A stretch of 8,412 bases of DNA, taken from the IMG/VR virus record IMGVR_UViG_2690316148_000008; one strand, 5' to 3'. Shown here one piece after another: positions 755-8,412 of the stretch; the first letter of the stretch is position 1; each line of letters begins with the position of its first letter. A program made the position numbers and the translations under genes. The notes below the pieces were generated by a model, which ran no database searches, had not been told where the DNA came from, and was given only the letters and a program-made list of their open reading frames with translations. The DNA is from a virus (Duplodnaviria; Heunggongvirae; Uroviricota; Caudoviricetes).

Positions 755-788
755 GGAGTTTACTCACATCTGACAAAATCAATATAAA

Positions 789-810
789 CAGCCCCTCCGG
801 AGAGGGGCTG
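789..810. terminator. Perfect 9-bp stem / 4-nt loop hairpin (cagcccctc-cgga-gaggggctg); on the minus strand it is followed by a U-rich tract, on the plus strand it follows the 111-aa ORF
   Basis: Inverted repeat read directly; complement of 781-788 gives UUUAUAUU after the stem on the minus strand. Possibly a bidirectional terminator between convergent units. Confidence 0.5.
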
Positions 811-1005
811 GAGAGTGGCGCTATGTGCCATTGCATGGTGCCGGGTGCCTCCCGGTGAATTCAGTACCAGCACCTGAATCCGCGATTATCCCATATACCT
901 ACTCGCTGATTGCCCCTCCGCACAGGGGGATTCACCATGCCAGTTTCTTTTAACAAACTCCCCGCAAAACAGACAACTGTCAACCGTCTGAATTGTGAGA
1001 CATTT

Positions 1006-1045: not shown

Positions 1046-1122
1046 TGGCGCGTTGTACTGGATTCGAACCAGTGACCGATTGCTTAGAAGGCAATTGCTC
1101 TGTCCGGCTGAGCTAACAACGC
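1046..1122 (-). tRNA. argO: tRNA-Arg (anticodon UCU), 77 nt, encoded CCA
   Basis: Manual cloverleaf: acceptor GCGTTGT/ACAACGC, D-stem GCTC/GAGC, anticodon stem ATTGC/GCAAT with loop CTTCTAA, T-arm ACTGG-TTCGAAT-CCAGT, discriminator G, CCA. Symbol follows the ileZ-argN-argO arrangement recalled from lambdoid/Stx phages. Confidence 0.85.
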
Positions 1123-1135
1123 ATGATGCAGATAA

Positions 1136-1212
1136 TGGACCGCCATCGGGGACTTGAACCCCGCGCAGCCAGCTTCGAAGGCTGGCGCTCTTTCCTGATG
1201 AGCTAATGGCGG
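1136..1212 (-). tRNA. argN: tRNA-Arg (anticodon UCG), 77 nt, encoded CCA
   Basis: Manual cloverleaf: acceptor CCGCCAT/ATGGCGG (unusual C1-G72), D-stem GCTC/GAGC, anticodon stem CCAGC/GCTGG with loop CTTCGAA, T-arm CGGGG-TTCAAGT-CCCCG. Exact 5' end is uncertain by 1 nt. Confidence 0.75.
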
Positions 1213-1219
1213 TATGTGA

Positions 1220-1295
1220 TGGTGGCCCTTGCTGGATTTGAACCAGCGACCTGGCGATTATGAGTCGCTCGCTCTCACCACTGAGCTAAAGGGCC
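1220..1295 (-). tRNA. ileZ: tRNA-Ile2-like (anticodon CAU, presumably lysidine-modified to read AUA; Met cannot be excluded from sequence alone), 76 nt
   Basis: Manual cloverleaf: acceptor GGCCCTT/AAGGGCC, D-arm GCTC-AGTGGTGA-GAGC, anticodon loop CTCATAA, T-arm GCTGG-TTCAAAT-CCAGC, discriminator A, CCA; overall resembles my recollection of E. coli ileX. Confidence 0.8.
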
Positions 1296-1335: not shown

Positions 1336-2394
1336 TCATCCGTTCTGGCTGACTAAATCCTGTACTTCCCGAACCGTCTGCTCAAAACGTTCAGTCTCCA
1401 GCTCAACGCCAATTGCACGACGCCCGAGCGCCAGTGCCGCTTTCACTGTCGAACCCAACCCCATGAAAAAATCTGCAATCAGGTCACCCGGACGACTGCT
1501 AGCGCTGATTATCTGCTGCAGCATTTCTGCCGGTTTTTCGCACGGATGTTTCCCGGGATAGAACTGCACCGGTTTATGCGTCCACACATCGGTATACGGC
1601 ACCTGCACCGTCACGCCAAAATACCGCCGCAGATGTTTATATTCACTCAGCAGCTCCGCATACTGCCGGTTCAGTGAGGTATACGTATCCACCAGCTGGT
1701 GGTGGAGCTTTTCCAGTTCACCACGCCGATGCTTCTCTTCTGCCACCCGGGCAAACAGCGCCTGTAATTTCAGATAATCGCTTTCATTCGGCAACTGCCA
1801 CTGACCGGCACTGAACCAGTGCGACACCATGTTTTTCTTTCCTGTGGCATCTGCAATCTGTTTTGCCGTTATCCCCAGGGCAGCTCGCGCATCACGAAAG
1901 TAAGAAATCAGCGGGGCCATCACATGCTGTTTCAGTGCACTGCCCTTCGCCGCATACCCGGCATCTTTCGGACGATACGGCCCCTGATAATGTTCCGCGA
2001 ACAGAATGCGCTCTGTGGCGGGGAAATACGCCCGCAGGCTTTCCTTGTTGCATCCGTTCCAGCGTCCGGACGGCTTCGCCCAGATAATATGGTTCAGCAC
2101 ACTGAAGCGTTCACGCATCATGATTTCGATATCAGATGCCAGGCGATGACCACAGAACAGGTAAAGACTTCCGGCAGGTTTCAGCACCCGCCAGAACTGC
2201 GCCAGACACTGGTCCAGCCACTTCAGGTAATCATCGTCGCCCTTCCACTGGTTATCCCAGCCCTCAGGCTTCACTTTAAAGTACGGCGGGTCCGTGACTA
2301 TCAGGTCAACAGAATTTTCGGGTAACGACCGGATAAATTCCAGGCAGTCGGCGTTGATTAACTCACAACTGGATATTTTTACAGTATTAAGCAT
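1336..2394 (-). CDS. Orphan DNA methyltransferase, beta-class N6-adenine/N4-cytosine type (motif IV DPPY near the N-terminus, motif I FxGxG near the C-terminus)
   Basis: 352-aa ORF; VTDPPY early and FFMGLGST late is the motif order of beta-class amino-MTases (N6_N4_Mtase family); no restriction endonuclease partner is visible in the window. Confidence 0.85.
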   Translation of the reverse strand: MLNTVKISSCELINADCLEFIRSLPENSVDLIVTDPPYFKVKPEGWDNQWKGDDDYLKWLDQCLAQFWRVLKPAGSLYLFCGHRLASDIEIMMRERFSVLNHIIWAKPSGRWNGCNKESLRAYFPATERILFAEHYQGPYRPKDAGYAAKGSALKQHVMAPLISYFRDARAALGITAKQIADATGKKNMVSHWFSAGQWQLPNESDYLKLQALFARVAEEKHRRGELEKLHHQLVDTYTSLNRQYAELLSEYKHLRRYFGVTVQVPYTDVWTHKPVQFYPGKHPCEKPAEMLQQIISASSRPGDLIADFFMGLGSTVKAALALGRRAIGVELETERFEQTVREVQDLVSQNG

Positions 2395-2486
2395 GGATCA
2401 TTAAGCCTGTCTCTGATAGGCTCATTCTGCTTTTGCGCAAAGCAGTGGGCCTGAGGTTTGCTTGTGAACCCAACGCATGAGCAGAT

Positions 2487-2517
2487 GGCTGGTGGGTGCC
2501 CCTAACACCCACCAGCC
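2487..2517. other. Perfect 12-bp stem / 7-nt loop hairpin (ggctggtgggtg-cccctaa-cacccaccagcc) in the methyltransferase leader; each arm contains a Chi octamer
   Basis: Inverted repeat read directly; GCTGGTGG at 2488-2495 (plus) and its complement at 2509-2516. Confidence 0.6.
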
Positions 2518-2530
2518 GCCCATTTACCAC

Positions 2531-2558
2531 AAATAAAAAAGCCTTCACTGCGGAAGGC
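2531..2558 (-). terminator. Rho-independent terminator (stem gccttc/gaaggc, loop actgcg, then UUUUUUAUUU on the minus strand)
   Basis: Hairpin 2541-2558 and A-run 2531-2540 on plus; the stop codon of the 65-aa ORF (2545-2547) lies inside the stem. Confidence 0.6.
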
Positions 2559-2742
2559 GTCTGTAACAACCGAACTGATAGTCTGCCAGACCCGCCATAA
2601 CCAGCTGGGTCAGTATTAACTGGCAGCGTTCGCGTGAAAGGTAAGTATTCTGCGCTATCTCCCCGACTGTCGCCGGTTCGGTAACGCTTAATTCATTAAA
2701 CACCACTCTGGCGGTTTCTGTCATATCCTGCTGTTTTAGCAT
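2545..2742 (-). CDS. Small (65 aa) putative helix-turn-helix DNA-binding protein
   Basis: AAGGA Shine-Dalgarno 6 nt upstream of the ATG; HTH-like segment TVGEIAQNTYLSRERCQLILTQL; sits between the late promoter/terminator and the methyltransferase. The terminator overlapping its 3' end keeps the coding call uncertain. Confidence 0.45.
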   Translation of the reverse strand: MLKQQDMTETARVVFNELSVTEPATVGEIAQNTYLSRERCQLILTQLVMAGLADYQFGCYRRLPQ

Positions 2743-2860
2743 GTCTTTTCCTTTTCCGGTTAACGTGACACACCAATAACTCTTGTCGAAAAAGCCAGCA
2801 AGCTGAAAGACAGGTATTCACCGCCACCAGCGCGTTTACTGTACTGACGCGATTTCAGTC

Positions 2861-2886
2861 ATAAAAAACCCGCTCGGCGGCGGGTT
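2861..2886 (-). terminator. Candidate tR'-like rho-independent terminator about 40-65 nt downstream of the pR'-like start
   Basis: Minus strand reads AACCCGC-CGCCGA-GCGGGUU followed by UUUUAU; 7-bp stem read directly. Confidence 0.55.
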
Positions 2887-2918
2887 GTAGAAACTCTTCT
2901 AACGTCAGGCATAAAACG

Positions 2919-2961
2919 CCCATCGTTATGACGAATTTACCACAGATTCCGGAAAAATCAA
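2919..2961 (-). promoter_or_regulatory. pR'-like Q-dependent late promoter: -35 TTGATT (2956-2961), 16-nt spacer, -10 TAAATT (2934-2939), then AACGATGGG (2927-2919) matching the lambda pR' sigma-dependent pause element as I recall it
   Basis: Hexamers and pause-like element read on the minus strand immediately downstream of the Q stop codon (2967); arrangement parallels lambda pR'. Confidence 0.6.
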
Positions 2962-2966
2962 CCTTG

Positions 2967-3623
2967 TTACCTAGTTACCTTTTTTAACTGCCGCTCAGCC
3001 CATGCTTCTTCAATATCAAACCGGGTCACCAGCGCATCATAAAATTTCTTAACTGTTTTTTCCCATGACGCGCGTGTTATCTGGTTTGTCACCTCGCATA
3101 TAGCATTAAATGCCTCCGTTGATGGTAGTCTTTCATAGCCACGACCACCACAACGCTGGCAGTCTCTGATAACAGGCATACCACGTTTTACCGACTCTTC
3201 ACGATGAATGGCGACACCACGCCCACGGCAATCCTTACAGGCGGTGGAAACCTCACCCTTTCCGCCACACTCCGGACAGGCAACTTTTACCACCTCTCTG
3301 ACTTTTTTCCATTCTTCCCAGTAAGACGGATACACACCTTTCGTACACTTTGCCCATACCGGCGGCTTACCATCCGGATACTGGACCTTGTTTGTAAAAA
3401 CTACGCTTTCAATAAATTTTTCCCCATAGCAACAAGGGCACTGCTTTTTACTCGCTGCGCTGCGGGCATAATCCTCAAAAGCGTACGAAGCCATAATGCG
3501 CATCACTACCGGTTTTATTTCTGCCGGAAGTTTTCTCAACGCCGCCACACGATCGCACCGACTGAGTGCATAATCTGCCAGTAATTCTGTTGCCCGCGCC
3601 CTGTCATTCATACTGATGCCCAT
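2967..3623 (-). CDS. Q: Antitermination protein Q, lambda-Q family, copy 1: carries the true C-terminus; the frame stays open upstream to the N at 3650, so it is 5'-truncated at the junction
   Basis: 218-aa ORF with CPCC...CPECGG...CKDCRGRG...CQRCGGRG zinc-ribbon motifs and a C-terminus (YDALV...VTR) resembling lambda Q from memory; followed by a pR'-like promoter. Confidence 0.75.
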   Translation of the reverse strand: MGISMNDRARATELLADYALSRCDRVAALRKLPAEIKPVVMRIMASYAFEDYARSAASKKQCPCCYGEKFIESVVFTNKVQYPDGKPPVWAKCTKGVYPSYWEEWKKVREVVKVACPECGGKGEVSTACKDCRGRGVAIHREESVKRGMPVIRDCQRCGGRGYERLPSTEAFNAICEVTNQITRASWEKTVKKFYDALVTRFDIEEAWAERQLKKVTR

Positions 3624-4257
3624 TTTCCCCAGGAACGCAGAAAACCCCANAATTTCTTAACTGTTTTTTCCCATGACGCGCGTGTTATCTGGTTTGTCAC
3701 CTCGCATATAGCATTAAATGCCTCCGTTGATGGTAGTCTTTCATAGCCACGACCACCACAACGCTGGCAGTCTCTGATAACAGGCATACCACGTTTTACC
3801 GACTCTTCACGATGAATGGCGACACCACGCCCACGGCAATCCTTACAGGCGGTGGAAACCTCACCCTTTCCGCCACACTCCGGACAGGCAACTTTTACCA
3901 CCTCCCTGACTTTTTTCCATTCTTCCCAGTAAGACGGATACACACCTTTCGTACACTTTGCCCATACCGGCGGCTTACCATCCGGATACTGGATCTTGTT
4001 TGTAAAAACCTCGCTTTCAATAAATTTTTTTCCGTGACAGCAGGGGCACTGTTTTTTGCTCGCCGCGCTACGGGCATAATCTTCAAACGCATACGAAGCC
4101 ATAATACGCATCACTGCCGGTTTTATTTCTGCCGGGAGTTTTCTTAACGCCGCCACGCGATCACACCGACTGAGTGCATATTCTGTCAGCAATTCTGTTG
4201 CCCGCTCTCTGTCATTCATACTAATGCCCATTTTCCCAAGGAACGCAGAAACCCCCA
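3043..4257. repeat. Two diverged direct copies of a ~607-bp Q segment (3043-3649 and 3651-4257) joined at a single N (3650)
   Basis: Manual alignment: the two units are near-identical over roughly the first 300 bp (about 1 difference seen) and clearly more divergent over the rest, with substitutions and 1-nt indels. Confidence 0.85.
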
Positions 4258-4396
4258 TCTCAGCCCGATTCTGTGTCATGCCCTGCGCGGCCATCACATC
4301 AGTGATACTCAGCGCATCTTTCGACGTTGAGGCCGATGCATCAGTCAGGCCGGGGGATTTTGGGGAGTAGTATTTCGGTAAATCTTCCAGTTTCAT
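3608..4396 (-). CDS. Q: Antitermination protein Q, lambda-Q family, copy 2: carries the true N-terminus; homology-supported coding is 3651-4396, and the ORF tail 3608-3649 is a frameshifted read-through across the N at 3650
   Basis: 262-aa ORF; N-terminus MKLEDLPKYYSPKSP...DVMAAQGM resembles lambda Q; same Cys motifs as copy 1; start codon overlaps the rusA stop (ATGA). Confidence 0.75.
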   Translation of the reverse strand: MKLEDLPKYYSPKSPGLTDASASTSKDALSITDVMAAQGMTQNRAEMGVSAFLGKMGISMNDRERATELLTEYALSRCDRVAALRKLPAEIKPAVMRIMASYAFEDYARSAASKKQCPCCHGKKFIESEVFTNKIQYPDGKPPVWAKCTKGVYPSYWEEWKKVREVVKVACPECGGKGEVSTACKDCRGRGVAIHREESVKRGMPVIRDCQRCGGRGYERLPSTEAFNAICEVTNQITRASWEKTVKKXWGFLRSWGKWASV

Positions 4397-4767
4397 TTTT
4401 TGACCTGCTCTTCATGCATTATGGGGTAAATCTTCACCCCCAGACGTCCACCAGATACTGGCTGACCACGAACGATATTGATTTCATCAAACTGCTCATC
4501 GTCCATTAACACTCCCGCATGTGTCAGTGCATCCAGTGGTGCTTTCAGGATATTGTCCAGGTCACGACGGCGCTTATCCGGTGGCTCTGCAATAATCTTT
4601 ATCGCCAGTCTTCCGGACAGGCTTAATTTCAGTCGCTGCTGACGGACAATAAGCGCCACATCCCGGCGATAACGCTCACCGGCTTTTGATACAAAATATG
4701 TGTTGTCACGACGTCGCCAGTAAGTATTCACCGTCGGCGGATAAGGTAAAATAAACTCATGGCGCAT
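4393..4767 (-). CDS. rusA: Crossover junction endodeoxyribonuclease RusA (Holliday junction resolvase)
   Basis: 124-aa ORF with RusA-like pattern LPYPPTVNTYWRRR...RRRDLDN...SGGR; stop overlaps the Q start (ATGA); start overlaps the stop of the upstream 85-aa ORF. Confidence 0.85.
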   Translation of the reverse strand: MRHEFILPYPPTVNTYWRRRDNTYFVSKAGERYRRDVALIVRQQRLKLSLSGRLAIKIIAEPPDKRRRDLDNILKAPLDALTHAGVLMDDEQFDEINIVRGQPVSGGRLGVKIYPIMHEEQVKK

Positions 4768-5024
4768 CAGCGCAGCACCTCCTGCACCAGTTTTTCAAAC
4801 TTTCCGACTCTGGTTTCCAGCTCTGCCACACAGTCCACCAGCTCATCTACTGCTTTCTGTGCGCGATGCTTCGCCTGCATCAGTTCCCGAAGCGCGGGTA
4901 CCATATCTTTACGGATAGCGTCTTTTGTTATGCCCGTTTTTTCGAGTTGTTCAGCATGACGCAGCATTTCCTGCGCGTGTTTACGCAATTGTTCAGGGGT
5001 AAAAGTCATTGTCTGGTTGTTCAA
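4767..5024 (-). CDS. Hypothetical small phage protein (85 aa from a TTG start with GGAG SD 8 nt upstream; in-frame ATG at 5009 would give 80 aa); N-terminus resembles the 114-aa ORF at 7639-7983
   Basis: Open frame; MTFTPEQLRKHAQEM is similar to [16 protein letters not shown] in ORF 7639-7983; 1-nt stop/start overlap with rusA. Confidence 0.55.
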   Translation of the reverse strand: MNNQTMTFTPEQLRKHAQEMLRHAEQLEKTGITKDAIRKDMVPALRELMQAKHRAQKAVDELVDCVAELETRVGKFEKLVQEVLR

Positions 5025-5076
5025 AAGAAACGCTCCATCTTACTGCTGTCAGTTCGTTTATTACTGTATCTGCGCG

Positions 5077-5143
5077 NNNNNNNNNNNNNNNNNNNNNNNN
5101 NNNNNNNNNNNNNNNNNNNNNNNNNNNNNNNNNNNNNNNNNNN
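5077..5143. other. Assembly gap (67 N)
   Basis: Run of n characters; separates the 5' UTR of the 85-aa ORF from a truncated second rusA copy. Confidence 0.95.
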
Positions 5144-5306
5144 TTCCGGACAGGCTTAATTTCAGCCGCTGCTGGCGAACAATAAGCGCCACTGCCCGGC
5201 GATAACGCTCCCCGGCTTTTGATACAAAATATGTGCTGCCACGACGACGCCAGTAAGTGTTCACCGTCGGCGGGTAAGGTAAAACAAATTCTATGCGCTC
5301 GGTCAT
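5144..5306 (-). pseudogene. rusA: 5' fragment (about 54 codons) of a second, diverged rusA copy, truncated by the N gap
   Basis: Encodes MTERIEFVLPYPPTVNTYWRRRGSTYFVSKAGERYRRAVALIVRQQRLKLSLSG; nucleotide sequence clearly similar to 4610-4767 (roughly 90% by eye); start lies 1 nt after the DUF968 stop. Confidence 0.7.
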
Positions 5307-6365
5307 TTATGCTTTCCACTTCAGAACACCCGAATTTCTCGCGTGCATTAAAAAACGAATCAGCAACAACAGCTGACTGCCGTGTTTCTCTTCAAAATCT
5401 TTTACTCCGGCATGTAGTTCGTTACGGCATTTACGGCATAACGGAATAACAAACAAATCATCAGCCTTTGTTCCCATCCCTCCCAGTCCATGACCAATGA
5501 TGTGATGCGGATCATCTGCCTGATTGCCACACGTCATGCATTTCTGCGTTTTTACCCAGCGCGTGTATACAGGCATCTCTTCCCGTTGTGATTTCTGGCG
5601 CTGGAGATACTGAGCCGGTGACTCCGGATCAACGGCAATGCTGACCACCGTCTTTTCCTGTGGTGGGTTCTGTTGCTGGTGGACGTGAGGCAGTAACGCA
5701 ATATTTTTTGTGCGCTGCTTCAGTATGCTGGTGGCTGTCTGCTCTCCCGGTATGATGTCGCTTTCACTGTACACAGAGCGAATTTTTTCCGCACGCAACC
5801 CCAGCGAACGACGTAATACCGCTTCCGGTAGCGCGTCCGCCACCTGATTGCGGACCGCCCACCAGGATAATTCAGCCAGAGATAATTCACGCTCCTGCGT
5901 ACCGCTTATTGCGTGACCGATGACGTCAATCATCCATGCTGACAGGTTTTGATGAGCAAGTTGCTCGAGTGATTCGGATGTCTGGTCACGCAGCTGGTTG
6001 TCGCAGTGCCAGCACAACACCATTGCGCCGGTACCATAACGGTGAATGACGGTTTCGCTGTGATGATAATCGCCGTGTGGCCACTGGCAGGATTTAATAT
6101 GGCGCAACAGCCAGTCAGACAATGCACCAGCACCACCAGCAGCACGAATCACCCGTGCGTTACTGAAAAACGGCAGCAATGTTTTGTCTTCCACCAGCGG
6201 CTGGCGAGCGGCAGGAACGACCCCGGACGGCAGATTACGCATGCTTTTTGGTTCCGGCTCCACCAGTATTCTGCCGTTATGGAATGCTGACATTGATTCA
6301 CGGCCTGGCTTAACGATAACCAGACCGAGTTCCGGTACCAGAACAGGTCGAAGTAATACCCGCAC
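5307..6365 (-). CDS. DUF968-family prophage protein (YdfU-like) with a C-terminal HNH/zinc-finger-like motif
   Basis: 352-aa ORF; C-terminal CMTCGN...HHIIGHGLGG...CRKCRNELH (CxxC...HH...CxxC...H); sits immediately upstream of rusA, the position I recall for ydfU-like genes in lambdoid prophages. Confidence 0.7.
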   Translation of the reverse strand: MRVLLRPVLVPELGLVIVKPGRESMSAFHNGRILVEPEPKSMRNLPSGVVPAARQPLVEDKTLLPFFSNARVIRAAGGAGALSDWLLRHIKSCQWPHGDYHHSETVIHRYGTGAMVLCWHCDNQLRDQTSESLEQLAHQNLSAWMIDVIGHAISGTQERELSLAELSWWAVRNQVADALPEAVLRRSLGLRAEKIRSVYSESDIIPGEQTATSILKQRTKNIALLPHVHQQQNPPQEKTVVSIAVDPESPAQYLQRQKSQREEMPVYTRWVKTQKCMTCGNQADDPHHIIGHGLGGMGTKADDLFVIPLCRKCRNELHAGVKDFEEKHGSQLLLLIRFLMHARNSGVLKWKA

Positions 6366-6366
6366 A

Positions 6367-6645
6367 TTACCTCCAGATCCGTTGCTGGAATGTGCGGGAC
6401 GGACGCGTTGGCCGTTCGGAGTAAGGGAGCCTGACGGAGATTATCCAGTGACGGTAGTCGAGGCTAAGGGCTTTTTTAACCTCGCATCCGCGCCTGCGGT
6501 AACACTGAATGAGCCATTCGGCCTGTTCTTCAGTGCATGGGGGATGCTGGTACCAATCAGATTTAAATGCGTGAGAGCGCCGCCCGTGCCTGCTGGCAAA
6601 GACGGCTGAATTATCAGAATTGTGTAGTCTGGAATTTTGCGCCAT
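6367..6645 (-). CDS. Hypothetical small protein (92 aa)
   Basis: GGAG Shine-Dalgarno 7 nt upstream of the ATG; stop 1 nt before the DUF968 start. Amino-acid composition is unremarkable and no family is recognised. Confidence 0.45.
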   Translation of the reverse strand: MAQNSRLHNSDNSAVFASRHGRRSHAFKSDWYQHPPCTEEQAEWLIQCYRRRGCEVKKALSLDYRHWIISVRLPYSERPTRPSRTFQQRIWR

Positions 6646-6711
6646 CGGCTTTCTCCGGTGGCACAGTGTTACTCAACAGGGGTTCAGCCCTGCGCTGAAT
6701 TGTAGATGAAT

Positions 6712-6975
6712 TCACTCATCTTCAAAAGCAGAAAAACCAGCCTTAATCCCAGCTTCTTTCAGAGACGGCAACGATGTGACAAATTCATTTGCACGCGAAA
6801 TAAAACCATCCGTCACAAGCCCATCCACAAAATGAATTAACGCAGCTCCACTCTTCCTTTGTTGAGATTGCAAACATCTAATGCGGCAATGGCTGACAAT
6901 AGCGCCATTCTCAACGCGCACAGTATAGAGGCCATCTTCACTAAAAATTTCACGTAATTCTTCGATTTTCATCAA
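6712..6975 (-). CDS. Hypothetical small protein (87 aa)
   Basis: GGAAGGA Shine-Dalgarno 8 nt upstream; candidate promoter directly upstream; no family recognised. Confidence 0.5.
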   Translation of the reverse strand: MMKIEELREIFSEDGLYTVRVENGAIVSHCRIRCLQSQQRKSGAALIHFVDGLVTDGFISRANEFVTSLPSLKEAGIKAGFSAFEDE

Positions 6976-7053
6976 CAGAATCCTTCCAGATAAATAGCAC
7001 TCCCCTGTTCGGGGTCCATCCCTCTTCTCCCTGCGCGCTACTTAAGTGAGTCG

Positions 7054-7081
7054 ATTCTATCTGCGAAGGTGCGCGAATCAA
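7054..7081 (-). promoter_or_regulatory. Candidate sigma70 promoter for the 87-aa ORF (-35 TTGATT at 7076-7081, 16-nt spacer, -10 TAGAAT at 7054-7059)
   Basis: Hexamers read on the minus strand about 20 nt downstream of the hok terminator. Confidence 0.45.
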
Positions 7082-7100
7082 ATTCACCGGAAATAAACAA

Positions 7101-7122
7101 CAAAAAACCCGCCGAAGCGGGT
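7101..7122 (-). terminator. Rho-independent terminator of the hok transcript (stem cccgc/gcggg, loop, then UUUUUUGUUGUUUAUUU on the minus strand)
   Basis: Hairpin 7108-7121 and A-run 7102-7107 on plus; about 70-90 nt after the hok stop, matching the usual hok 3' UTR length. Confidence 0.65.
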
Positions 7123-7191
7123 TAAGTGTGGGTGCATTGAGGATGCCTGACCCATCAGAGGTGGCGAGGGATTTCTCCCCCGCCTGGTCTC

Positions 7192-7347
7192 TTACTCCTC
7201 AGGTTCGTAAGCTGTGAAGACAGCGACCTCCGTCTGGCCGGTTCGAATTCGTACCTCGCAGAGGTCTTTCCTCGTTACCAGTGCCGTCACTATGACGGTT
7301 AAACAGATGACGATCAGGGCGATTAACATCGCCTTTTGCTGCTTCAT
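7192..7347 (-). CDS. hokD: Hok/Gef-family membrane toxin (51 aa), HokD/RelF-like; the open frame extends in-frame upstream to an ATG at 7404 (70 aa), which may be a mok-like initiation region
   Basis: MKQQKAMLIALIVICLTVIVTALVTRKDLCEVRIRTGQTEVAVFTAYEPEE matches my recollection of E. coli HokD and the Hok consensus (CLT...TRK.LCE.R); AAGGAG SD 9 nt upstream of the ATG at 7347. Confidence 0.85.
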   Translation of the reverse strand: MKQQKAMLIALIVICLTVIVTALVTRKDLCEVRIRTGQTEVAVFTAYEPEE

Positions 7348-7516
7348 AGCCTGCTTCTCCTTGCCTTTCGGCACGTAAGAGGCTAACCTAGATTTGCCGT
7401 TCATAGATTGAGCCTCAGATTAATGTTAAGCGTCTTGCCGGACGCGTAATGTTAACTGGGGCTTTTCTCTATCTGCCTTTTGGTGTTCATGCCTGAGACA
7501 GATAGCCTCAAGCACC

Positions 7517-7551
7517 CGCTGCAATTCTACTTAACTCTCCTTTTCCCGCAA
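7517..7551 (-). promoter_or_regulatory. Candidate hok promoter (-35 TTGCGG at 7546-7551, 16-nt spacer, -10 TAGAAT at 7524-7529), predicted start near 7517 giving a ~170-nt leader
   Basis: Hexamers read on the minus strand; predicted 5' end coincides with a 12-nt element (7506-7517) complementary to the 3' UTR (7130-7142). Confidence 0.5.
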
Positions 7552-7638
7552 ACCGTTTTTATCCCCAGCGGCAAATCGAATACACCACCAGCGCCACCGC
7601 CATCGCAATTCCTACCGTTGTTAATGCTTCAGGCCAGG

Positions 7639-7983
7639 TCATCGTAAAATATCCTCCACGCTTATCAGTCCGTTCCGCTCCAGATAACTCATCGCCTTAT
7701 CCGGTAATTTGCAGTCTGGCTTCGCTTTCCTCAGTTGCCAGGTTAACTGCTTTACCAGCATGGTTAACTCATCGACCAGACGCTGATATCCCACTGGTTT
7801 GTATTCATGCAATTTACCGGCTGGCTCTGCTGCCAGCGATACCAGTGCGATTTCCAGAACAGCAATATCCATCTTATATGTGCGGATGATGTCATGGTCG
7901 ATTGTGCCCGGTATGCACAGTCTCTGTGCTTCAATAGTCTCCTCTGCGTGAGCTATTAACTGCTCTCTGGTAAAAGTCGTCAT
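7639..7983 (-). CDS. Hypothetical small phage protein (114 aa), translationally coupled to the upstream 55-aa ORF
   Basis: Start ATG overlaps the upstream stop (ATGA); N-terminus resembles the 85-aa ORF at 4767-5024 and its middle ([12 protein letters not shown]) resembles the 55-aa ORF ([11 protein letters not shown]). Confidence 0.55.
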
Positions 7984-8157: not shown

Positions 8158-8412
8158 TTAACCCGCAGTGCTTTCAACTGATGAGGGGAACAAAATCTTT
8201 TCATCAAACCCTGCATTCATATCATGAACAGCAACACACCAATCCATCGACNNNNNNNNNNNNNNNNNNNTCGACGAACGATTATCAAGAGCCTCCATGA
8301 TTTCATCCATGCGGCGTAGGTCATACAGGTAAATGCTTTTATCGCCAATGGTGTAAAAGCCAATTTTTTTCGGTGATGGATGAGGTGTACTGGCAATAGC
8401 GGACACTACCAT
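8158..8412 (-). CDS. Hypothetical protein (84 codons), start ATG at the window edge (may extend beyond); interrupted by a 19-N gap at 8252-8270
   Basis: Open frame MVVSAIASTPHPSPKKIGFYTIGDKSIYLYDLRRMDEIMEALDNRSS...; stop TAA at 8158-8160 overlaps the SD of the next ORF; the first 31 nt are repeated inverted at the left window edge. Confidence 0.4.
   Translation of the reverse strand: MVVSAIASTPHPSPKKIGFYTIGDKSIYLYDLRRMDEIMEALDNRSSXXXXXXXSMDWCVAVHDMNAGFDEKILFPSSVESTAG
8382..8412. repeat. Right arm of 31-bp terminal inverted repeat (partner 1-31)
   Basis: Exact reverse complement of bases 1-31. Confidence 0.9.

Follow-up and report, generated by a model that had tools for sequence, protein, structure and literature searches.

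Chi, the octamer 5'-GCTGGTGG-3', crowds an 8,412-base stretch of DNA from a virus of the class Caudoviricetes (IMG/VR record IMGVR_UViG_2690316148_000008), and this raises the question of whether the sites are there by chance, as a by-product of the proteins encoded around them, or through selection for the octamer itself. The whole of this stretch is what we call the window. An initial annotation had listed nine octamers at seven loci. An exact search of both strands of the window found 11, four of them on the plus strand (starting at 1695, 2488, 5675 and 5727) and seven on the minus strand (starting at 1689, 2509, 2824, 4835, 6133, 6191 and 7585). Eight of the nine coordinates given initially were right, and the count was too low: the site placed at 5685-5692 lies at 5675-5682, and those at 5727-5734 (plus) and 4835-4842 (minus) had been overlooked. 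Because each of two palindromes mechanically gives two octamers, the 11 Chi stand for nine independent places. We consider it likely that they form a selected cluster of recognition sites for the host enzyme RecBCD, of the kind known from lambda-like phages without a RecBCD inhibitor.

The excess over chance is large. Shuffles of the window that preserve its dinucleotides contain 0.35 Chi on average and never more than 3, against 11 observed (observed-to-expected ratio about 31). Markov models of order 1 to 3 predict 0.3-1.2, with a ratio of 17 under the trinucleotide (order-2) model, and under codon-aware null models the ratio is 5-10. The host provides a second yardstick. Its Chi density is given as 0.2 per kb by Bobay et al. 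2013 (PMC3784561), and in 93 kb of E. coli chromosome we counted 0.24-0.26 per kb, with 5 in the richest 8.4-kb window. At 0.2-0.26 per kb, 1.7-2.1 Chi would be expected in the window, in agreement with the figure of roughly two assumed at the outset; the Poisson probability at host density is 1.5e-6 for 11 octamers and 6e-5 for nine places. With 1.3 Chi per kb the window is 5-6 times as dense as the host, and the enrichment claimed in the initial annotation is not only real but was understated.

It is also the exact word that is enriched. Chi is the commonest 8-mer of the window, the next unrelated word occurring 5 times, and each of its 24 one-mismatch variants occurs at most twice and is not enriched. 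Hence the excess is confined to this exact octamer. A longer motif common to the sites, or a repeat family behind them, was ruled out by their differing flanks, by a best 9-mer with 4 occurrences and by the rarity of the one-mismatch variants just stated.

Eight of the Chi lie in genes and three between genes, and it might be thought that coding alone produced them. The encoded proteins hold Leu-Val, His-Gln and similar peptides, for which an E. coli-like codon preference (CTG, GTG, CAG, CAC) would spell Chi without any selection on the octamer. Five of the eight coding Chi indeed use the reading frame G-CTG-GTG-G, which is built from the commonest Leu and Val codons, and Subramaniam and Smith (10.1101/2021.07.08.451572) attribute most chromosomal Chi to codon usage. 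A codon-usage-matched control, which had been proposed together with the initial count, shows that coding constraint does not explain the density. Permuting synonymous codons within genes yielded 1.54 +/- 1.06 coding Chi and at most 6, so that none of 5000 permutations reached the 8 observed; resampling from the pooled codon usage of the window yielded 0.89. On either strand, the genes of the window offer 11 peptide positions able to encode Chi, and eight of these (73%) are Chi. Based on codon frequencies in the remainder of the window, 0.83 Chi would be expected at the 11 positions (exact Poisson-binomial P = 2.7e-8). There are 5 sense Chi vs 0.67 expected and 3 antisense Chi vs 0.16 expected, to which the three intergenic sites have to be added. 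In 74 kb of E. coli core genes, where encodable positions have a similar density (1.4 per kb there vs 1.8 per kb here), only 21 of 104 such positions (20%) are Chi, namely 27% in sense and 6% in antisense. The Chi excess is a matter of codon choice at a few permissive places and not of protein composition. Permutation, resampling, exact test and host baseline all led us to reject an explanation by codon usage or protein composition, which we regard as extremely unlikely. The near-saturation of Chi-capable positions in both orientations is direct evidence for selection on the octamer and not on the proteins.

Could the count have been inflated by duplicated segments of a poor scaffold? The state of the assembly invites this question. 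Runs of N occur at 3650, 5077-5143 and 8252-8270, the antiterminator gene Q is present as a tandem duplicate (2967-4396) whose two copies are joined at the single N, and the 5' part of rusA appears twice (4603-5306) around an open reading frame (ORF) of 85 amino acids; it is probable that the window is a scaffold in which two prophage alleles were merged. Its ends (1-29 and 8384-8412) form a 29-nt inverted repeat. The same sequence is a 107-nt terminal inverted repeat in the IMG/VR contig L004 (1-107 and 6130-6236) and a single copy in L054 (3949-4055), suggestive of either a fold-back join from the assembly or an actual inversion junction bracketing the Chi-rich segment. This repeat has no effect on the Chi counts. 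The duplicated and N-interrupted parts contain no Chi at all, and 10 of the 11 sites occur at matching positions in a finished E. coli chromosome, the one carrying prophage L001, as well as in many independent contigs. Inflation by duplication or scaffolding is rejected for these 10 sites, and the chance that the cluster is an assembly artefact appears practically negligible. Only the Chi at 4835-4842 (minus strand) lies in a segment without counterpart elsewhere: it is on the sense strand of the 85-amino-acid ORF (4767-5024), where it encodes Glu-Leu-Val-Asp, and this ORF has no counterpart in 82 related loci.

The location of the cluster can be read from the gene map. The window is the nin / ydfU-rusA-Q-methylase-tRNA stretch of an E. 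coli lambdoid prophage. At 90-96% identity it matches 5072 of 5426 complete E. coli genomes as well as many E. coli, Shiga toxin (Stx) and Shigella phages, and its gene content and order are those of annotated lambdoid phages and prophages; the early description as a prophage segment was therefore correct. These close matches are in E. coli and Shigella, which, like Salmonella, are hosts with a RecBCD that recognises the octamer. The closest complete prophage is L001, integrated at ompW. By synteny with it, lysis genes and terminase lie beyond the left end of the window, and replication genes, repressor region and integrase beyond its right end, which places the window between replication origin and cos. 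Ten of the 14 Chi of the L001 prophage fall in the corresponding stretch. The orientation of the phage map is given by the region of Q and rusA (2967-4767, minus strand), which is free of Chi, and the minus strand of the window is the sense strand of rightward/late transcription. Seven of the 11 Chi have the lambda-active orientation, that is, they are sense with respect to rightward transcription and the approach is from cos.

The same distribution is seen among close relatives, for which we used 80 IMG/VR loci whose ydfU product has at least 90% amino-acid identity. Here the mean number of Chi per kb is 3.65 in ydfU, 0.6-1.5 in the 2-6 kb downstream of it (Q to methylase) and 0.05-0.37 in the 10 kb upstream of it. 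Conservation of single sites was counted over up to 82 related loci, each denominator being the number of loci aligned at that site. In the window, ydfU (5307-6365, minus strand; DUF968 with a putative HNH nuclease motif by Pfam) contains four Chi, two per orientation. Two are antisense to the gene: the one at 5675-5682 (plus strand; Val-His-Gln-Gln, amino acids 228-231) is kept in 81/82 loci and the one at 5727-5734 (plus strand; Ala-Thr-Ser, amino acids 211-213) in 77/82. The latter spelling has a probability of 0.009 from codon usage alone, and it is also found at the orthologous position in the 50%-identical ydfU homologues of SfV, mEp460 and PPyecE. The other two are on the sense strand: the Chi at 6133-6140 (minus strand; Ala-Gly-Gly, amino acids 76-78) is present in 56/82 loci, and SfV-type and Klebsiella phage homologues have a Chi at the orthologous position as well. 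The one at 6191-6198 (minus strand; Pro-Leu-Val-Glu, amino acids 56-59) is present in 22/82. Outside ydfU, an intergenic Chi at 2824-2831 (minus strand) is kept in 33/39 loci. A terminator-like hairpin (2867-2886, minus strand) follows Q, and this Chi lies about 30 nt downstream of the hairpin. At the other end, the Chi at 7585-7592 (minus strand) is found in 19/21 aligned loci and lies on the sense strand of a 27-amino-acid ORF (7559-7642, minus strand) as Ala-Leu-Val-Val. This hydrophobic ORF is unannotated, and its start overlaps the stop of an upstream 114-amino-acid ORF as ATGA.

The cluster recurs in diverged relatives as well. The YdfU proteins of SfV, mEp460 and PPyecE are only 47-50% identical, and the 10-kb segments around their genes contain 1.76, 1.37 and 1.19 Chi per kb, respectively. 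SfV shares the layout of a Chi-rich stretch between replication genes and the terminase/cos end: the 10.7 kb between cro and cos hold 18 of the 22 Chi of its whole genome (1.69 per kb vs 0.12-0.17 elsewhere), 13 of these 18 in the lambda-active orientation. Diverged ydfU alleles (50-79% identical) hold 2-4 Chi each in both orientations, and the pairs face outward from the middle of the gene. Chi is kept at the orthologous Ala-Gly-Gly, (Ser/Cys)-Trp-Trp and Ala-Thr-Ser positions; the allele of mEp460_ev081 has Chi at other positions instead. It looks as if the number of Chi in ydfU is maintained with some turnover of sites.

A resident prophage is part of the chromosome, and the sites might serve the host by allowing RecBCD repair of collapsed forks that pass through it. 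In the 30-kb locus of L001 at ompW, 11 of 16 Chi are indeed on one strand. This is presumably the leading strand, judged from the orientation of the flanking tonB-yciABC-ompW genes and from the position of these genes on the MG1655 map. At this locus host-type and phage-type orientations coincide, so that the two cannot be told apart there. Elsewhere the evidence speaks for the phage. Chi is 5-6 times as dense as in the host, and this density is restricted to the stretch from origin to cos, not prophage-wide. Both orientations are saturated, whereas fork repair needs one. The cluster recurs in the phage genome records of SfV (whole genome) and mEp460 (10-kb ydfU segment), and the degraded resident prophage PPompW_132418 has few Chi. 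Hence a benefit to the host chromosome seems unlikely as the reason for the cluster.

How, then, could a selected cluster of RecBCD recognition sites work for the phage? RecBCD reads Chi on the strand whose 3' end lies where the enzyme enters, and a single Chi is recognised in a minority of RecBCD passages, roughly one third. After induction, linear ends would arise from cos cuts, rolling-circle tails and broken forks, and without Gam or Abc2 RecBCD would load there. Coming from the cos side, the left of the window, it would read the minus strand and meet seven Chi in turn; coming from the side of the replication origin it would read the plus strand and meet four. Each of the four plus-strand sites is within about 460 bp of a minus-strand site (in the methylase palindrome, in an intergenic hairpin and in ydfU), so that these places would be recognisable from both directions. 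With such a run of Chi the switch of RecBCD from degradation to RecA loading should be almost certain within a few kb. The phage DNA would be spared, and RecA-dependent recombination could then build the concatemers needed for packaging. That RecBCD recognises the 11 sites, and that the phage gains from it, is what we infer.

This model supposes a phage that does not block RecBCD, and its relatives fit the supposition. No homologue of lambda Exo, Bet or Gam was found in 84 other loci, including the integrase-to-terminase span of the L001 prophage and two complete records, L083 and L084; for recombinases, this sequence search covered Exo and Bet and did not extend to Erf, Sak, Sak4 and RecT. 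Among the early-left genes of L001, none has a Pfam domain of a recombinase, Gam or Abc2, the large 'exonuclease' there being a Rv2179c-like 3'-5' exonuclease, and the annotation of SfV lists no inhibitor or recombinase. Lambda contains zero Chi in 27000-48502. According to the preprint of Subramaniam and Smith (10.1101/2021.07.08.451572) its whole genome is without Chi, as the initial annotation had stated. In the E. coli genome with the closest relative of the window (NZ_CP135658.1), another prophage has a gene annotated 'phage anti-RecBCD protein' (L086 1-179; 499883-500179), which means that Chi-rich and inhibitor-bearing phages coexist in one cell.

Several points weigh against a selected cluster of RecBCD sites. 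The action of RecBCD at these sites is deduced from the octamers themselves. The window stops short of the early-left region, where Gam, Abc2 or a recombinase would be encoded. We infer that this particular phage lacks an inhibitor because none was found in its relatives, and lambdoid mosaicism weakens that step. The 80 loci are closely related and do not represent independent samples, and the Chi at 6191 is the least conserved site. Given the encodable peptides both orientations are equally saturated, and the split of seven to four is not significant alone. Some relatives are poor in Chi although their ydfU is 90% identical: PPompW_132418 (L083, LC567822.1), with a ydfU about 90% identical, has only 4 Chi in 44 kb. 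It is a degraded prophage with an insertion sequence and frameshifts, and one of its Chi lies in ydfU; possibly Chi may be lost once a phage is non-functional. Finally, Subramaniam and Smith (10.1101/2021.07.08.451572) call 'protection from degradation' an over-simple view of Chi.

The adjacency of the cluster to the end at which RecBCD would enter suggests yet another use. Spacer acquisition by the CRISPR system of E. coli is bounded by Chi sites. Chi close to the free cos end might therefore cut the supply of RecBCD products to Cas1-Cas2, and the cluster would limit spacer acquisition or mimic 'self'. Nothing in the window bears on CRISPR, however, and CRISPR adaptation is inactive in many E. 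coli strains. Such an effect would moreover be a consequence of the same interaction of RecBCD with Chi and not a separate mechanism. As the reason for the cluster we hold it to be very improbable.

Two of the places are palindromic, and the initial annotation had correctly described both, suggesting that a Chi-dense segment with bidirectional Chi palindromes could influence RecBCD processing or recombination of the region. The first, the overlapping double Chi CCACCAGCTGGTGG at 1689-1702, lies in the N6/N4 DNA methyltransferase gene (1336-2394, minus strand; Pfam) and consists of a minus-strand Chi at 1689-1696 and a plus-strand Chi at 1695-1702. It is the top-codon spelling of His-His-Gln-Leu-Val-Asp (amino acids 231-236). 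Both halves are present in 13/29 aligned related loci and the plus-strand half in 22/29. The 14-mer occurs in at least 120 viral stretches of IMG/VR; in 70 of 118 sampled it has the methylase context, which it also has in SfV and mEp460, and the remaining contexts are scattered. With this scatter a recurrent special structure built on the 14-mer was ruled out.

The second palindrome is an intergenic stem-loop at 2487-2517, between another terminator-like hairpin (2541-2558, minus strand) and the start of the methylase gene. Its arms (2487-2498 and 2506-2517) carry a plus-strand Chi at 2488-2495 and a minus-strand Chi at 2509-2516. The second Chi of such a hairpin is automatic because a Chi in one arm entails its complement in the other, and with it a Chi on the opposite strand there. 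The minus-strand Chi (2509) is kept in 32/33 loci and the plus-strand Chi (2488) in only 17/32. These figures, together with the 13/29 of the methylase palindrome, do not bear out a special role of the palindromes, and we found no evidence for selection of palindromy as such for RecBCD.

For this hairpin only, it might be possible that the stem-loop acts in RNA, for example as an element that processes or stabilises the late transcript upstream of the methylase gene, with the second Chi as an automatic complement. The stem has 12 perfect pairs, or 14 with G.U in the minus-strand RNA, and the fold of the 181-nt region around it beats 200 of 200 shuffles (z = -3.4). Among 17 distinct variants, all three core-stem changes are on the 3' arm (C>T and CA>TG) and keep G.U pairing in the minus-strand RNA, yet destroy the plus-strand Chi; the poor retention of that Chi fits as well. 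On the other hand, compensatory double changes are absent among the 17 variants, three compatible transitions would occur about 1 in 8 times by chance, and the sequences are closely related. The hairpin has no Rfam match and no T-tract (the sequence after the stem is ATCTGCTCATGCG), and a terminator scan lists 2541-2558 and 2867-2886 and no site at the hairpin; both an intrinsic terminator and membership in a known RNA family were thus rejected for it. Furthermore, the conserved 5' arm itself spells Chi exactly, in lambda-active orientation, and both roles may hold. We regard a function in RNA as a tentative option for this one element.

The concentration of Chi in ydfU allows for a more speculative idea, namely that selection acts on the number of Chi and not on single sites, tied to the neighbouring recombination genes. 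The ydfU gene with its putative HNH nuclease motif adjoins rusA (4393-4767, minus strand), a Holliday-junction resolvase gene without Chi. The two might form a self-contained recombination cassette, in which a break at or near ydfU, flanked by oriented Chi, would be resolved by RusA. Phage P1 encodes a 25% homologue of YdfU, PdcB (AF234172.1 88955-89875), towards the end of its record. If the cassette existed, it would drive the exchange of modules in the mosaic nin region, and PdcB near the Chi-dense pac end of P1 would be a parallel case. Judged by titles and abstracts, a literature search brought up nothing relevant on ydfU together with Chi. We think it quite improbable that such a cassette exists. 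The ydfU homologue of mEp460_ev081 (L084, LR597641.1, 36885-37934) is deposited as 'Phage antitermination protein Q', an evident mis-annotation because the real Q comes after rusA.

On the minus strand of the window, from right to left, small nin-like ORFs are followed by hok/sok, rem, ydfU, rusA, Q, a 65-amino-acid ORF, the methyltransferase gene and three tRNA genes. The sok antitoxin RNA (7342-7517, minus strand; Rfam) lies beside mok/hok (7192-7404, minus strand). The tRNA genes (1046-1295, minus strand) are Arg-tct, Arg-tcg and one with a CAT anticodon, which is called Met here and Ile in a related genome. To their left follow the small RNA STnc100 (780-969, minus strand; Rfam) and then iraM on the plus strand.

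Clustering of Chi in this kind of phage region has already been described, and the window is one instance of it. Bobay, Touchon and Rocha 2013 (PMC3784561) found among 275 lambdoids many with more Chi than expected, concentrated from gene O to cos; phages with Gam or Abc2 avoid Chi and inhibitor-less ones over-represent it, most strongly when they are also without a recombinase. The RecBCD link drawn in the initial annotation matches this published reading for exactly this genome region. Our case is alike in being an E. coli lambdoid with a composition-corrected excess between replication genes and terminase/cos, in and around nin, and in its association with absent Gam or Abc2, which is here seen in relatives only. 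It differs in that the Rec/Inh class of this phage is not readable from the window, and in its local density of 1.3 per kb (1.2-1.8 per kb in SfV, mEp460 and PPyecE). Orientation, codon-level saturation, the ydfU hot spot and palindromes are not part of that paper. Subramaniam and Smith (10.1101/2021.07.08.451572) likewise report lambda relatives with a Chi density equal to or above that of E. coli, mostly in lambda-active orientation, and clusters near the pac end of P1 that they read as selection for recombination. The P1 clusters resemble ours in being dense near the packaging end, on both strands, not due to codon usage and ascribed to selection for RecBCD-dependent recombination. P1, however, packages by headful and cannot circularise unless its terminal repeats are recombined by the RecBCD pathway, whereas a cos phage has cohesive ends and the benefit proposed here would be protection together with concatemer formation.

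The classical precedent is the Chi+ mutations of lambda red gam (Lam et al. 1974; Henderson and Weil 1975, summarised in 10.1101/2021.07.08.451572). The octamer is the same, and without Red and Gam it enables packageable concatemers to be formed by the RecBCD pathway, but only if it points towards cos. Those were single mutational sites in a naturally Chi-free phage, whereas the window has 11 natural sites in both orientations. Chromosomal Chi of E. coli is the identical octamer, mostly in the frame G-CTG-GTG-G, but has 0.2-0.26 per kb with 20% of encodable positions realised (6% in antisense), compared to 1.3 per kb and 73% in both orientations here.

In conclusion, the window offers a clean and quantified case of a published rule, according to which inhibitor-less lambda-like phages load the stretch from origin to cos with Chi. 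The saturation at the codon level adds detail to this rule and sets the window apart from the host chromosome, most of whose Chi is due to codon usage. Bobay et al. 2013 (PMC3784561) suggested the Chi pattern as a possible reason why the nin region is so variable. A cluster of this type is the mark of phage DNA relying on host RecBCD instead of blocking it, and as such it might be of use in predicting the defence and counter-defence strategies of prophages and in understanding the mosaicism of the nin region.

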